A DNA stretch of 64,000 nt from a virus (Duplodnaviria; Caudoviricetes), in the IMG/VR virus record IMGVR_UViG_3300014039_000017, positions 64,001-128,000 of that record. One strand, written 5' to 3'. A model generated the notes under the pieces. It saw only the letters and a list, made by a program, of their open reading frames with translations, searched no databases and was not told where the DNA came from. Numbering within the stretch: position 1 is the first letter of the stretch; each line of letters opens with the position of its first letter. The translations under genes and the position numbers were made by a program. Positions 1 to 51,141 of the stretch are shown here, one piece after another.

Positions 1-246
1 AATGGAGACTTTCTTGATCTACCTAGTAATTCAGTTCTTCTTTTAAATGATGATGGAAGTGTACAATTTACTTTGCAAGGCGGTGAACGTATATTTTCTA
101 GAATATCTAGCCGAGTAATAGTTAGAAAAGCTAAGAAAGCTAAGAAATCTAAATCCGATACAGATTATAAAGACTTGGGGAGATATATATTTGGGGAAAT
201 GACTAGACAAGATAATAGAAAAGAAGAATATGTAGATAAACCCTAA
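1..246 (+). CDS. 3' end of a hypothetical protein (partial, runs off the window)
   Basis: Frame +1 is open from base 1: NGDFLDLPSNSVLLLNDDGSVQFTLQGGERIFSR...EEYVDKP, TAA at 244-246, followed directly by a terminator-like hairpin. No ATG start near the window edge, so it is absent from the ORF track. Confidence 0.75.
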   Translation, partial: NGDFLDLPSNSVLLLNDDGSVQFTLQGGERIFSRISSRVIVRKAKKAKKSKSDTDYKDLGRYIFGEMTRQDNRKEEYVDKP

Positions 247-248
247 AT

Positions 249-284
249 GCGATGTGGCTTTTCGTCCGAAAAGTCACTCGCTTT
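249..284 (+). terminator. Intrinsic terminator-like hairpin after the upstream gene
   Basis: GCGA-t-GTGGCTTTTCG / CGAAAAGTCAC-TCGC stem (one bulge, one G-U) followed by a short TTT, 2 nt after the stop codon. Confidence 0.6.
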
Positions 285-330
285 AAGTATAGTTACATTA
301 AGTATAGTATTAAGTATAGTATAATTATAG
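284..330. repeat. Short tandem repeat TAAGTATAGT x3 plus one degenerate copy
   Basis: taagtatagttacat taagtatagtat taagtatagtat aattatagt read directly. Confidence 0.8.
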
Positions 331-368
331 TTAGCTCTGTAACTAATTATTATTCATAACTTTATGCA

Positions 369-495
369 ATATCCCGTAGCGAGATCATTATATTTGGTAG
401 CGAAAACGTTATATTTGGTAGTCTTAATATTATATTTAGTAGTCCAATCGTTATATCTGGTAGCGAGATCGTTATATCTGGTAGTCTTTATCGTT
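369..495. repeat. Six tandem 21-bp direct repeats (iteron-like), core TTATATYTGGTAG
   Basis: Units start at 369, 390, 411, 432, 453, 474: atatcccgtagcgagatcatt, atatttggtagcgaaaacgtt, atatttggtagtcttaatatt, atatttagtagtccaatcgtt, atatctggtagcgagatcgtt, atatctggtagtctttatcgt. Followed by an almost pure A/T tract at 495-560. Confidence 0.9.
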
Positions 496-555
496 TTTAT
501 AGTATTTTTAATATATTTTTATATATATTATATAATGATTATATTATGTATATAC

Positions 556-585
556 AAAAAATCCCCGACTGTAACAGCCGAGGAT
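556..585 (-). terminator. Intrinsic terminator of the minus-strand small RNA
   Basis: Minus strand ATCCTCGGCTG-TTA-CAGTCGGGGAT then TTTTT. The 11-bp stem is complete only on the minus strand (two G-U pairs). Confidence 0.8.
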
Positions 586-656
586 ATGCGATCTAATAAT
601 ATTTTTAACGTAGTTTGCCGTAGCAGCGTTCACGCTCTGTTCTAACTTTATCGCAA
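556..656 (-). ncRNA. Putative ~100-nt structured small RNA
   Basis: Bounded by a TACATTTG promoter element (659-666) and a terminator (556-585). GC-rich island with a closing stem TGCGAT/ATCGCA and internal hairpins AGCG-TGAA-CGCT and TGC-TACG-GCA (cUACGg tetraloop). No ORF seen. Confidence 0.55.
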
Positions 657-658
657 TA

Positions 659-722
659 CAAATGTAAGTATAAATAATCATATACGCAATATTGTTTATT
701 TAAATTTATTTTTGTATATTTG
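659..722. promoter_or_regulatory. Divergent Bacteroidota-type promoters
   Basis: -7 element TAnnTTTG on the minus strand (659-666, TACATTTG) and plus strand (715-722, TATATTTG). The central palindrome CAATATTG (687-694) supplies a TTG -33-like element for both at about 20 nt spacing. Confidence 0.6.
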
Positions 723-790
723 CCCAAAATAGAAATAATATACACACAAATAAGAAGATAGATATTATTAATAATATAAATTTATTTTTT

Positions 791-1096
791 ATGGCATACG
801 TTCGTAAATATCAAGAGGGCGGGGTTACACCAACAGCCCCTCAGCAGGCTCCACAGCAGGGTGGAGTAGAAGAGCAGCTTGCTCAAGTTGCTCAACAGAT
901 TCTAGATTCTCTTATGCAGGCTCTTGGAGATCCTCAAGCAGTAGCAATGGTTCTTCAGATGGCTATGGAAATGCTTCAGGGTGCAGCTCAAGAAGTTGGT
1001 TCTGCACCAGCAGAAGGACAGCAGTTTATGCGTAAGGGTGGTAAAATATGCAAAAAGGCTTGTGGCGGTAAAGCCAAAATGACTAAGAAGGCCTAA
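791..1096 (+). CDS. Small Gln/Ala-rich putative virion cargo protein, 101 aa
   Basis: Intact ORF with its own promoter and terminator and a distinct codon bias. Carries RKYQEGG and FMRKGGK motifs shared with downstream proteins. Confidence 0.85.
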   Translation: MAYVRKYQEGGVTPTAPQQAPQQGGVEEQLAQVAQQILDSLMQALGDPQAVAMVLQMAMEMLQGAAQEVGSAPAEGQQFMRKGGKICKKACGGKAKMTKKA

Positions 1097-1116
1097 TTAA
1101 ATAGATAATTCTTTTT

Positions 1117-1153
1117 AAGGAGGTTGGGGTTTAACGACCTCAATCTCCTTTTT
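1117..1153 (+). terminator. Intrinsic terminator/attenuator
   Basis: AAGGAGGTTGGGGT-TTAACG-ACCTCAATCTCCTT followed by TTTATTTT. Confidence 0.75.
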
Positions 1154-1165
1154 ATTTTATATTAT

Positions 1166-4100
1166 ATGTCACAAGTAATAAAACTTAAAAAAGGAAATAA
1201 AACACCTAAATTGCCTAAGTTAGAAGAGCCTGTAATACAGGATGATGTTCAAATTCCAGAACAAAAACCTATGCTTGGTAATTTTTCTATGAATGGTAAA
1301 ACTATTCATGGTCAAAATGCGCTCGATAGGCTTTTTAGCGTTTATAAAGATAGAGATGTTTCTGAAAGAGGTATGTTTAATGTAGCTGACAAAGCTATTA
1401 GAGATGGATATAATGTAACTTACAATGCAGGAGACAATACAATCCAGGTAGTTGATTCAAATGGTAATGACATTACCAATAATTACATGGATGGGATTAA
1501 GGCTAAAACTACAGATTCTCTTATTAAAAGAACATGAGATGCAACATTTAGAAATAGAGCAGATGCCTTTAAAAGAAGTGGAAGATATATGCAAAATATT
1601 GATATGTCTGATGATTCTGAAAAAGTTACTGCTCCTAAATTTAAATGAGAAAGAGGTAATAATGATTGGTGAACAACTAAAAAAGTTGATAATAATGATG
1701 TATATGATTCAGATGACATAATGAATCAAGATCGTTGAAATACTGTTGTGAATAACTTTACAAATATAATTGGATCTTCTAAGATTGAAGATATTATGAA
1801 TGCTTCAGCATTTGATATGTCTGCATGAACTGGACACGAATCCGATTTGACGCAGCTTAGAAAACTATACAATGAAGTTGGAGGCACCAAAGAAGCTAGA
1901 GATCAATATTTAAATAATCTTAAACAAAGACTTGTTTCTGATAATTTGACAGAAGGAGATTATAATATACTTAGGCTTATGGGTTTTGTAAAGCCAAAAG
2001 TTCAAACTAGTACAGAAACATCATCAAATAATGGTAACAATAATACTTATACAATTCCAGATGGTTGGACAGGAAATACCGATGCAGCTAAAGATGCTGG
2101 AGTTACAATAAGTCATAATGATGATGGAACATGAAGTATTACAGGCCCTGACGAATATACAAAAAATACATGATATAATAAAGGGCTCAAGTTTTTGGAA
2201 AACACACCGTTTGCTGATGGATTTATCATTAATGGTATTCTTAGAAGTAAAGACGATATTTTAGCGAATCCTGATAATTATCAAGATAAAATTGGTAGCT
2301 TTATGTCTCTTGGTAATTCTAATGGATGAAATGATTGGTACGATCGCGCCAATGCTAGTGGTGTAAGATTTGTTGGAGATAGAATTTGGACAAATCAAGG
2401 AAATGATTATTATGGTATTTATAATAATTATAATTCTAATACAGACTATGTTCCTGCGCTGTGGGATTTTTTAAATAAAAATAGAATTAATTATGGTGGC
2501 GTTAGTGATGTATCAAATTTATTTGACTTATCAAATAAACCAGGAGTAAAAGTTTATTCATATCTTGATCCATCTAAAAGAAACTATGCAGGGGTTTATA
2601 TTCCTCAATATGTTATTAGAACTAATAATTCATTAAACTACACATCAGATAATATTGATGATATAGCAAATAAATTAGGTGTTTCTAAATCTGCTTATCC
2701 TCAAACCCCAGCTAGTTTAACAATTAATCCGTATGAAGACGTTAGAGGTATTCAAATGGCTTTAACTAGACAATTTGGTAAGCAAGGTCAAGAAGTCTCA
2801 TTAGGGAGAGATAAAAATGGAACGTATTATATATATAGAGGTAATGAAATTGATCCAATACAATTAACTGGATACGGTAGAGAAAGAGATCAAGAAGTAA
2901 TGCATAAAATAATGCAATATATTAGAGGTGAACTACCTTGGACTTGAAAAGATATAGAAGCATTAAAAGTTCAGAAACCATTCGTTCCTGCTGATACTGC
3001 TAGTACAGTCGCTTTTAAAAAGGATGGAGGTAAAATAAATTGGAATCGACTTCAAAAACTTCAATTTGGAGGATCTATACAAAATACAAGTGCAAATAAA
3101 GTAAATTCTAGCAAAATATCAGAAAGTTCAAAAGATATTACAAAAGATCATAAAATGAACGGATCTGATGGAGGCCTTACCCAGTCAGAAGTAAATCAAC
3201 TTATTGCCGCTGGGTTAGATTTGGGAGGCGTTGTTGCTAGTATGTTTGGCCCTGCTGGAAATGTTGCAGGAGCTGCCACAGGCGCAGCAGGATCTATTAT
3301 GAGATATAAAGCTGATAAAGCACAAGGAGATGAAAACGGAGTTAAAAACGCAGGGTGAGAATTAGCTGCAAATCTTGGTCTTGATGTACTGTCAGCTGTT
3401 CCAGTTGCTGGTATTTTAGCTAAATCCGCTAAAGCTACGAAAGCTTTAAATAGTATTAGAAAAGTAGCTAAACCTCTTATGACTTTAGCAATGACTGCCG
3501 GGATGACATCAATGGTTACTCCTTTAAAAAAGATGATAAGTGGAGAAGAACTCACATCTCAGGATTTAGTAGATCTTGGCAAAGGTTTATCTTCTGGAGT
3601 TTTGTTTGGAAGAGGTGCAGCTAAATCTATCAAAAAAGGAGTTGGGGCTAGGTTACTTGCTACAGACGCCAAAAAAGCTGCACAACAAGCTAAAGCTACA
3701 GCTAAAATTGGAGATAAAACTATTACCAAAACTAGGCGGGAACTTGAAGATTTAATTGAAGATACAGGAGGCTCTAGAAAAGAAATGGTTTCCAAAATTA
3801 AATCTGAAGCCAAATCTATGGGCGTTGAACTTTCTGACGCAGGGGCTAAAAAAGCTTTAAGTGATTTAGGTATTAATTGAACTGGAAATACTAGAGAAGG
3901 ATGGAGTATAAAACATCCGTTTAGTAGAGGTAAAGTAATAGATAGGATTGGATCATTACCAGCACTATCTGACGGAAGATCAACTTTAGGCTACGCTTGG
4001 AGAGATATGCTTGGTGGTTTTGGGAATGGAAAAATTGATGCAACTATAGCAAGTACAGTTCCTACGAATACACTGAGGGCTGTTATACCTGGATTTAGTG

Positions 4101-22400: not shown

Positions 22401-25400
22401 GGGATTGAAAATTGTGGCATTGACAAATAGCATTTATAACGAAGTATATATTCCTGCTGCTATGGCCTGGCTTGAAGGATCTAATAAAAAAATTAAAGCC
22501 AAGTTTGGAAGTATAGTGTATTTTTGCTAACTTGCATTAGCAAAAATATGTATATATGAATATTGATATCGAAAAATTTAAAGCTGAAGTAAATCTTAAG
22601 AAGAATTACCAGCAATTATCAAATGAGTTTAATTGTTCTATAAAAACAATAAAAAGATATGCAAAAGAATTAGATTTAACAGTTGCAACTAAAATTTGTA
22701 AATCAAATGATCCAGAAGTTATAAACTCAGTCAAAAATCTTTTAGAGAAAAATAAAACTAATTTAGAAATTTCTAGAGAACTTGGAATCAGTCCAACGAC
22801 TGCAAGAAAATATACAAAGTTACTTGGAATGGAAACAAATACAGTAAGAAATAAATCGTTAAAAAGTCCAATAACTTTAACTAAAGAACAAGAAGAAATA
22901 ATTTATGGATCTATGCTTGGAGATATGTGTTTAACGACTACACAAAAATCGTATAGATTTTCCATATCTCAAGGAGGTGGGCATGAAGAATACTTTGATC
23001 ATCTAGCTAATATATTTTCTAATGTTATAGGAAAAGTAAATAAAACTCCAAGATACGATAAAAGAACCAAGTTGTTCTACAATAAATTTATGGTTAAATT
23101 TTTAGCATCTACATCTTACAAAAAGTATTATGATATAATGGTTATAAATGGTAAAAAGACTGTAACGGAAAAGTGGGCAAACCATTTAACTGCTAGGGGA
23201 TTAGCTTATTGATTTATGGATGATGGTTGTGTAAACGGAATTATAGCTACAAATGGATTTGCATTAGAAGAAGTTAATTTATTATCTCGTGTAATATTAA
23301 ATAAATTTAATATTCACACAGATGTTCAAAAAGTTTCAAAGAAAGAACAATGAATATTACATATTCAAGTAAAAGACAGAAAGGCGTTTGAAGATATAAT
23401 AAGACCTTTCATAATTCCATCAATGATGTATAAGTTAAAATATAAATAGTTGGATCCTAACCTCGTGAACTGCGGGAAACTCCTTAGAGACTTAACTACT
23501 AACTATATATAGAGATATATATAGGGTGTAACTAATCATTACAGTATAGTAAAAAGGCTAAGTATTGGACAATCCGCAACCAAGCCTCTAAAATAGAGGA
23601 AGGCTCATCGACTATCGAAAAGCGTGCAAGCGAACCAAGTAGAGTAGCGTAAAAGCGAAGTGCGAGGCGTGTTTTTTAAACACGAAGATATAGTCAGGTC
23701 AATTATTAACGTAATTGTGCGTTTAGGACTATGATATAGATAAACTATATATGATGGGTTATGAACTTAATTCAAAAGGAGGATTTGTAGGATTCTCAAG
23801 GCTGCTTAATGACGCTTTAACTCAACAAGAATTTGATGATATTCTTGATTTACCAAAACCAAATGGAATAAAATATGTAATTGGAGAAAATTCTGATTCT
23901 GGATTAAGTGAATTGGATGTTTTAAGTGTTATCGGGGACGTGGCACAAAGAGATTATACATTACTTAAAAATGTAATTAATTCTGATTCAGATCAAGTGC
24001 ATTTTAAACCAGAAGTATCAAAATCTAGTAGATACCGATTCTTAAACATTCTTAATAAGCATAGTCAAACTAAATTATCTAATTATACTAAAGAGGCTGC
24101 TTTAAGAAATTCTGTTGTGTATAAAATTAATACACTGCTTAGAAATGCAAGATTATCTCCATTGGCACATAAATCCGTGGATGATAGTATGGCGCTGTTT
24201 AGAAATATAGCGAAGAAATCAATGCTTGCAGCAACAGAGCTTTCTCTATCATCTGATAATCCTCTTGTTAAATTCCTTATGCAAACTCAAAATATGGTTG
24301 GTAAGGATGTAATTGGTATTACGGCGGTTGGAATGAAAGTATTCTTTGGAGTTACTACTGCATTAAATCAAACAATAACAGATTTAGTTGAGCATATAAA
24401 AACAAAGGATTTTGTTTCAGCACAATCAGATTTTCAAAATTTATTGTTTAAAGATCCTATTACAGGACAAGATATAACATTGGCTAATTTAAATTTTGAA
24501 CCATTGCTTGATTTGCTTAATAATTTATCAGAACAAGACAAATTAGATGTAAATAATGCTTTGGGGGATTATTTAAATGAATTGCCAAAAATAATAGAAC
24601 AATCACAACACACCGACGCAGCGGAAGCAATCTCAGGTTTGCTATCTGCGGCCACTGATTTTTGTAGCAACAAAAAGAAACACTTGCATATTTAAATTTT
24701 TATAAGTAAATTTGCATAAACTTAAAATATATTAATTATGCAAAAAATTTCTGAAGAAAAAATTAATCAAATGTATGAACTTTATAAACAAAATTTTAAT
24801 AAAGTTCAAATTTCAAAACAATTAGGAGTTAATGAAGAAACCGTTAGAAAATATTTAACAAAAAGATTTAATATTCCTCTTAAAGATTATTCTAAAAAAG
24901 TAGATCAACAAAAATTTGAAGAACTCTGAAAACAAGGAAAAACAGATAAAGAAATATCTGATTTTTTTGGAGTTTCTGAATTGACGATTAAAACTTATAG
25001 GACAAAAGGCGATAACGCTGGAAAATTTAATGTTGTTAGATATTTTTCACAAACAGAACAAAAGCTTACGTATGAACAAGATCAATTTATTAGAGGATCT
25101 CTTTTAGGGGATTTAAATTTATCTAAACCAAAGACAAATAGACATATAAACTCTCGTTTAGCAATTGTTCAATGTGAAAAACAAAAAGCGCTTTTTATAA
25201 AAAAAGTAGAAATTTTAGGAGATTTTATGGGAAATTATAAATTAGTAGTCCCGAAACCTGATACTAGAACAGGAAAAATATATACTTCTTATAGAGGAAA
25301 TTCGAAATCACATAAAGTTTTTACGGATTTATATAATGAGTTATATATAAATGGAAAGAAAACAGTAACAAAAGAGTTTTTAGATAAAATAACTTCTCCT

Positions 25401-51109: not shown

Positions 51110-51141
51110 CAAATATAAGATATTTTTATATAATTTACAAA
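51110..51141 (-). promoter_or_regulatory. Consensus Bacteroidota primary-sigma promoter
   Basis: Minus strand TTTG (51141-51138), N20, TATATTTG (51117-51110). Confidence 0.75.

Follow-up and report, generated by a model that had tools for sequence, protein, structure and literature searches.

A very probable small RNA gene back to back with the promoter of the virion RNA polymerase block in TGA-recoded crAss-like phages

The window, by which we mean the whole stretch of 64,000 nucleotides analysed here, comprises bases 64001-128000 of a 146.8-kb virus record (G+C 30%), and TGA must be read as Trp for its long genes to open. The only tRNAs of the record lie outside the window, a tRNA(TCA) at genome positions 137443-137514 and a tRNA-Gln(TTG) at 140814-140885; the first is a suppressor, labelled SeC by ARAGORN, and the presence of these two as sole tRNAs fits the reading of TGA as Trp. 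On the plus strand, a gene for a DUF192 protein, recognised by its domain match, ends at position 246 and is followed by a terminator-like hairpin (249-284), an element of its own on that strand which is also present in a related metagenome contig, L021. Next come TAAGTATAGT repeats (282-320), five 21-bp iterons (381-485) and an AT-rich tract (487-555), all of which are context and not part of the RNA described below. A gene for a 101-aa protein without a family match (791-1096, plus strand) opens a series of giant plus-strand genes which we take to be the cargo / virion RNA polymerase block of a crAss-like phage. BLAST of window positions 1-1200 against GenBank phage records gave no match. 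Between the AT-rich tract and the 101-aa gene, on the minus strand, lies a predicted small RNA of about 97-102 nt (555-656) with a body of ~70 nt, which the covariance models R1 and R2 recover at full length in relatives.

The sigma-ABfr consensus of Bacteroidota consists of a -33 TTTG and a -7 TAnnTTTG element (PMC7366714). Pattern matching placed a predicted promoter of this type ahead of the RNA, TTG-N20-TACATTTG at 659-689 on the minus strand. Its -7 box (666-659) had been pointed out in the initial annotation; to this we add the -33 TTG (689-687), separated from the box by a 20-nt spacer. Its divergent partner, TTG-N20-TATATTTG at 692-722 on the plus strand, would serve the 101-aa gene and the cargo block. 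The full TTG-N20-TAnnTTTG pattern has 7 sites in the window versus 2.06 expected, and 1 of 100 shuffles reaches 7; the back-to-back pair accounts for two of the seven. Three sites, at 692-722 (+), 24684-24714 (+) and 51110-51140 (-), each stand 24-69 nt ahead of a gene start (24 and 52 nt for the latter two, which suggests that host-type promoters are used within both gene arms). Taken alone, TAnnTTTG matches 122 times in the window versus 102 expected, and the ease with which such words arise in AT-rich phage DNA speaks for a reading in which a terminator stands by chance behind a promoter-like sequence.

The 5' end of the predicted RNA should lie near 656-651 and its 3' end in the U run at 560-556. 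The outermost helix, P1, pairs UGCGAU (650-655) with AUCGCA (587-592), and the long-range helix P2 pairs AGCGUG (631-636) with UACGUU (607-612). P3 is a hairpin, UGC-UACG-GCA (616-625, with the UACG loop at 622-619), in the form chosen by RNAalifold. The elements named initially, that is, the pairing ends TGCGAT (655-650) and ATCGCA (592-587) and the two compact hairpins AGCG-TGAA-CGCT and TGC-TACG-GCA, are all present in the sequence, and comparison among relatives separates the two hairpins. The UACG-capped one stands as P3, with compensatory changes in L155 and L162, whereas AGCG-UGAA-CGCU is broken in L101, so that the comparison favours P2 in its place.

An intrinsic terminator of -14 kcal/mol follows at 556-585 (minus strand), consisting of an 11-pair hairpin (585-561), AUCCUCGGCUG-UUA-CAGUCGGGGAU, and a U run (T5, 560-556). 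Two of its pairs are G-U on the minus strand and would be C-A mismatches on the plus strand, in agreement with the earlier remark that the terminator forms on one strand only. The minus-strand RNA 555-656 folds with -29.1 kcal/mol (z = -3.66), a value equalled by 0 of 200 shuffles, and the plus-strand fold is no better than shuffles (z = 0.07). For the 70-nt body alone, 16 of 200 shuffles were as good (z = -1.57). The body fold is thus not significant, so within a single sequence only the terminator beats chance, and this too favours a reading without an RNA gene.

Two mechanical open reading frames overlap the stretch on the minus strand (544-681 and 605-745). We rejected a small protein-coding gene because these frames are not conserved: no conserved reading frame was found across the relatives, the sole GTG frame being cut after 5-13 codons in L099 and L101 and the TTG frame amounting to 2 codons. 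A tRNA or tmRNA was rejected on the negative results of ARAGORN and the Rfam tRNA model. The initial annotation had likewise seen neither a coding frame nor a tRNA shape here. Searches of Rfam found no family for the RNA element in the window at E <= 10, in L099 and L101 at E <= 1, or, under permissive settings, in the phage L111, and the element thus does not coincide with a family catalogued there. A riboswitch or attenuator leader was rejected because the minus strand past the terminator is the antisense of plus-strand genes or iterons and Rfam returned no riboswitch.

Homologues were sought with R1, a covariance model built from the window sequence alone, in 36 related IMG/VR records. R1 matched the L099 type (G014, G032) with 68.7 bits and the L101 type (G029, G030 and later also G036) with 37.4 bits; with 104.8 bits it matched L119, a contig of 143 kb from a bin labelled 'Phocaeicola dorei'. 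A degenerate core pattern returned only the R1-matched records from IMG/VR and added one, L119, from a genome collection. A second scan, with a DUF192 protein alignment as query, yielded 28 more loci. L155 and L162 were recognised as diverged members by reading the gaps; they occupy the same slot on the same strand, and the RNAs of L156-L161 are the same as, or nearly the same as, that of L155. R2 with default filters missed both; with filters off it scored L155 at 21.1 bits and L162 at 17.5 bits, each the best non-self match of its locus. The family totals six distinct sequences (window, L119, L099, L101, L155 and L162) in about 17 records, carried by TGA-recoded, large gut-type crAss-like phages of at least six diverged lineages.

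The distribution is patchy. Many close relatives (L002-L020, L023, L163-L183) have no such RNA, which is therefore dispensable for these phages, and in most of the relatives found through DUF192 (L002-L020, L023, L054) the DUF192 and 101-aa genes are separated by an empty gap of 45-80 nt. An exact 20-mer of the RNA core had no match in IMG/VR, R2 had none over 120 other genomes of the family to which the bin of L119 belongs, and in G003, G005, G006 and G024 R2 gave weak, unconvincing matches only. The remaining relatives covered by these searches likewise yielded no copy.

The promoter travels with the RNA. In all six lineages, a -33 TTG or TTTG stands 18-20 nt upstream of a TAnnTTTG box, which itself lies 3 bases before the 5' stem in the window, L119, L099 and L101, and 3-5 bases before it in L155 and L162. 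The back-to-back promoter pair is also found in L119, L155 and L162. A predicted sigma-ABfr promoter of its own, a feature of the intergenic sRNA genes of Bacteroidota, is thus seen in every lineage, and the other such feature, a Rho-independent 3' terminator, is present with compensatory changes among lineages.

The helices are likewise retained through sequence change. In an alignment of four lineages that was model-fitted, i.e. fitted to the structure under test, 96.1% of cells are paired versus 32-43% with slid partners, and 7 pairs show changes on both sides, a number reached by 0 of 500 shuffles. RNAalifold independently retains P1, P2 and the terminator. G-U pairs make up 16 of the 98 paired cells of this alignment and would be A-C mismatches on the opposite strand, which assigns the fold to the minus strand. 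In P1, 4 of 6 pairs are changed on both sides among the four lineages, and the helix is replaced by a different one in L101, L155 and L162; across the six lineages its forms are UGCGAU/AUCGCA, GCAAUA/UAUUGC, UGACG/CGUCA, UAACCUA/UAGGUUA and AGAAC/GUUCU. Within P2, the second pair is G-U, A-U or G-C, and the third is U-A in four lineages but C-G in the other two. P3 reads UGC-UACG-GCA in the window, CUC-UACG-GAG in L155 and ACC-AUAU-GGU in L162, and L101 has a different, six-pair hairpin at this spot. The terminator covaries among lineages as well. When each sequence was folded singly, the minimum-energy structures of 5 of the 6 lineages shared the P1-P2-P3 layout; that of L101 kept P1, P3 and the terminator, with an alternative hairpin in place of P2. 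The covariation set comprises six distinct sequences, two of which (scoring 21.1 and 17.5 bits) were aligned by hand: the helices of L155 and L162 were tabulated manually, as a MAFFT alignment of the six RNAs mis-aligns both. Homologous units with compensatory changes in six lineages raise the observation above chance and support the initial proposal of a stand-alone, structured, non-coding RNA unit antisense to the plus-strand gene run, for which a search for covarying homologues had been suggested.

Every carrier has the RNA in the interval that separates DUF192 from the 101-aa gene, antisense to both. The promoter of the RNA is paired back to back with the 101-aa gene's promoter, except in G014, where an ORF inserted ahead of that gene supplies the partner promoter. 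It is the lone minus-strand unit inside a long plus-strand run in 4 of the 4 genomes mapped whole. The content of the interval between DUF192 and the RNA varies. It holds nothing in L119 and L155-L161, a 131-aa ORF in L162, and the short repeats, iterons and AT-rich tract in the window. In L021 it is as in the window with the addition of Rep; in G014 it holds a 113-aa ORF, TAGGTATAT repeats, 21-bp iterons and a Rep paralogue; and in G029/G036 it is as in G014 with the addition of a MUG113/T5orf172-wHTH gene. Because this gap is variable, the fixed partner of the RNA is the cargo-block promoter, not the origin module. The iteron-plus-Rep module is found beside the RNA in three lineages and is absent in three; it is an insertion beside the RNA in some lineages, and the RNA is independent of it. 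The idea that RNA and array form one RNA-plus-iteron control module does not hold as a general rule, since L119, L155-L161 and L162 have the RNA without iterons or Rep; the present analysis corrects that link, in that the neighbouring array belongs to a separate, insertable Rep/origin module.

The origin of the iterons in the window can be read from L021. This contig carries an RNA identical to that of the window, its DUF192 protein is 96% identical, and its flanking DNA is 98.6-99.5% identical on both sides. It has an 829-nt segment (L021:1341-2169) where the window, at 545-549, has instead ~28 unrelated bases. The segment encodes a 240-aa Rep-like protein (HTH_36 + DnaD_N) that matches phage replication-initiator families, and it follows from this comparison that the iterons of the window are orphans, left over from an origin module that combined iterons and Rep. 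A search of 84% of the window's genome returned no Rep homologue. In one sequencing run of unspecified kind, parts of the window stretch occur as short contigs only, and one contig of that run departs from the window left of 549 and continues like L021. The L021 Rep protein had no BLAST match in GenBank phage records and none in a close-relative scan of IMG/VR, its relatives being reached with an alignment of Rep homologues. About 370 Rep homologues were found. In 36 Rep loci of related phages (L062-L097), the RNA had no match by nhmmer or BLAST.

From its sequence and conservation, the segment 555-689 on the minus strand is very probably the gene for a folded RNA of ~100 nt. We consider it probable that this is, as a whole, a host-transcribed gene for a structured small RNA, itself probably acting in trans. 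Transcription would start from the sigma-ABfr promoter a few bases after TACATTTG. The RNA would form a closed rod, in which an A-rich internal loop separates P1 from P2 and a second internal loop, small and conserved, separates P2 from the capped P3, and the transcript would stop at the strong intrinsic terminator one base past P1. As a lone counter-transcript back to back with the cargo-block promoter, it would probably be made by the host polymerase together with that block, in the middle or late phase of infection. In the crAss-like phage phi14:2, the middle and late genes have promoters of host type, from which the host polymerase transcribes them (bioRxiv 10.1101/2020.03.07.982082). Since the helices and a conserved core, AGYGUGAMCG...ACKACRUU, are kept and the flanks turn over, the RNA may act in trans through this core, perhaps by binding a protein or RNA partner. 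Halted by its terminator, transcription of the RNA would also not run on into the gene or origin that converges on it from upstream.

Searches for a target or partner found none. The duplex energy of the RNA with the neighbouring 5' UTR was no better than that of shuffles, and target words sought in four genomes were recurrent complementary 10-12-mers in unrelated coding contexts, apparently due to chance or to biased codon content. The modelled architecture, a closed rod capped by a UNCG loop and containing a conserved internal loop, would be more typical of a protein-binding than of a base-pairing RNA.

The main competitor, which we regard as unlikely, is a boundary element that acts in cis, comparable to pO/oop of lambda, in which the counter-directed promoter and terminator inside a co-directional run are what matters. 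Firing of the promoter, and pairing of its product with plus-strand read-through, would uncouple DUF192 or Rep from the cargo block; an origin module would be shielded from incoming transcription, and the fold would serve mainly the stability of the RNA. The position of the RNA as the only minus-strand unit of the run agrees with this, as does the arrangement in L119, L099 and L101, where the upstream stop codon abuts the RNA terminator and no plus-strand U tract follows the hairpin. With no terminator of their own in these three, upstream transcripts must cross the RNA gene and would be fully complementary to its product. In lambda, pO activity modulates pR-driven transcription and replication, and oop is an antisense RNA (PMC3985674). 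However, a boundary would need neither the conserved core nor the compensated helices, yet both are kept where the flanking proteins are 41-66% identical; the DUF192 gene of the window and of L021 has its own terminator-like hairpin; and the RNA overlaps no coding sequence.

We speculate, although we hold this proposal to be quite improbable, that the RNA serves as a dedicated partner to the cargo / virion RNA polymerase module, since it faces the promoter of that module in all carriers. Such a partner could be packed with, chaperone or time the giant injected proteins, or act as a decoy against a host defence. If this were true, it would represent a class of function so far undescribed for Crassvirales.

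We judge it very unlikely that there is no RNA gene here at all. The locus would then be a signal at the level of DNA, such as hairpins in single strands or a site bound by a protein; a very small protein-coding gene; or a terminator that has a promoter-like sequence beside it by chance. The body fold that shuffles can match and the abundance of promoter-like words leave room for this, but promoter, three helices and terminator recur in order on one strand in six lineages, the G-U pairs make the fold strand-specific, the reading frame is not conserved, and some 58 nt separate the arms of P1, more than the usual binding site of a dimer would span.

We also hold a replication-linked RNA to be very unlikely, be it a primer, an origin-opening activator or a copy-control RNA of the iteron/Rep module. 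A role of this kind was raised in the initial annotation, next to the likewise hypothetical ones of protein sponge and antitoxin mimic. It would suit the abutment of the RNA 3' end on the AT-rich tract beside the iterons in the window and the converging Rep-like genes (HTH_36 + DnaD_N) and iterons that adjoin the RNA in L021, G014 and G029/G036. It fits only half of the lineages, however, given that the RNA persists in L119, L155-L161 and L162, whose gaps contain neither iterons nor Rep. In lineages that do have Rep, RNA and iterons are 0.7-1.5 kb of coding sequence apart. The RNA is positioned 3' of rep, without overlap with the rep leader or coding sequence, and it is found beside rep, or in the rest of the record, for 0 of the 36 other Rep loci. 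A primer fits poorly because most lineages have either a Rep gene between the RNA and the AT-rich tract or no origin.

Among known systems, the copy-control RNAs of plasmids, examples being RNAI of ColE1, CopA of R1 and the pMV158-family ctRNAs, act via kissing complementary loops and overlap either the leader of rep or the primer. Like them, the phage RNA is small, structured, terminator-ended and, where rep is present, beside it on the opposite strand; unlike them, it lies 3' of rep, overlaps nothing and persists without rep. We therefore rejected a copy-control ctRNA on the position 3' of rep and on the lack of Rep in the gap of L119, L155-L161 and L162 and in the searched part of the window's own genome.

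The closest resemblance in gene plan is to the intergenic sRNAs of Bacteroides (GibS and the 'high-confidence' set of Ryan et al. 2020, PMC7366714), which share with the phage RNA a sigma-ABfr promoter, a length of ~100 nt, the lack of an ORF, a Rho-independent terminator, and an AT-rich composition with a GC-richer core. The RNA described here differs in being phage-encoded and in having no sequence or Rfam match. GibS and FopS have a long single-stranded 5' seed (PMC11697453), whereas both body ends of the phage RNA would be locked in P1; membership in the GibS/FopS family was rejected on this paired 5' end and on the absence of an Rfam match. As judged by sequence and Rfam, the predicted RNA is thus a new family with a gene plan already known from Bacteroides intergenic sRNAs, and it supplies a new entry for RNA databases.

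Lambda oop, transcribed from pO (PMC3985674), is similarly a short, terminator-ended counter-transcript from a constitutive-type promoter within a long co-directional operon, and four genome strand maps place the phage RNA in the same kind of setting. In half of the lineages it also adjoins a replication initiator and iterons; an old hypothesis casts oop RNA as a primer (PMC3985674). The two differ in that oop overlaps the 3' end of cII as an antisense RNA and the phage RNA abuts the upstream gene without coding overlap: in L099, L101 and L119 its 3' end comes within 0-3 nt of the stop codon, and in the window no gene is near it. Moreover, oop lies upstream of O and points away from the origin, whereas the phage RNA lies downstream of rep and points toward the origin, and three of its lineages have no origin module.

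Non-coding RNAs have been described for phi14:2 in the g004-g005 and g005-g006 gaps; these are long, early and rightward, and come from the other genome end (bioRxiv 10.1101/2020.03.07.982082). They share with our prediction that a crAss-like phage would make a non-coding transcript. Compared by description, they are probably made by the injected phage polymerase, unlike the RNA at hand, which has ~100 nt, a host-type promoter and a place where the cargo block begins. Few gut viruses are as abundant as crAss-like phages, and RNA-level regulation in them is almost unknown; a putative RNA gene fixed at the head of the block for the injected RNA polymerase offers a handle on the timing or protection of that block.

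Several minor observations concern the Rep loci. The TAAGTATAGT repeats (TAGGTATAT in G014 and G029) recur, 85-97% identical, in over 30 related records, where they stand upstream of Rep and immediately precede the 21-bp iterons (in L062-L097, ~200 nt upstream of rep; also L106:2764-2803 and L109:2768-2787), and are a candidate for a conserved origin or operator word. Some relatives have tandem Rep genes (L064:2483-4220; L069, 2495-3043 and 3574-4299), each with its own copy of the short repeat upstream. The MUG113/T5orf172 gene of L101 (798-1499; also L108:3750-4451) encodes a 233-aa GIY-YIG-like protein fused to winged-helix domains; the gene separates the Rep paralogue from the small RNA and has the look of a mobile insertion. 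A search for counter-transcripts downstream of other rep genes revealed no general pattern; L071 alone has a promoter-like box, TAACTTTG, ~100 nt before a minus-strand terminator downstream of its Rep gene (L071:3383-3480, minus strand), and the stretch between them is unstructured and AT-rich and may be an unrelated short counter-transcript. In L111, a 176-kb phage, the small-RNA slot after the Rep paralogue holds a plus-strand terminator and a minus-strand tRNA (L111:3785-3857), which scores 36.8 bits with the Rfam tRNA model (gathering score 29) and was missed by ARAGORN. Finally, a 17-nt word from the J1/2-P2 stretch of the RNA, TTAGAACAGAGCGTGAA, also occurs at L104:1495-1520 (+) and G011:90817-90913; this copy in another phage has a different context, precedes a different terminator, and may be a fragment or a distant paralogue.
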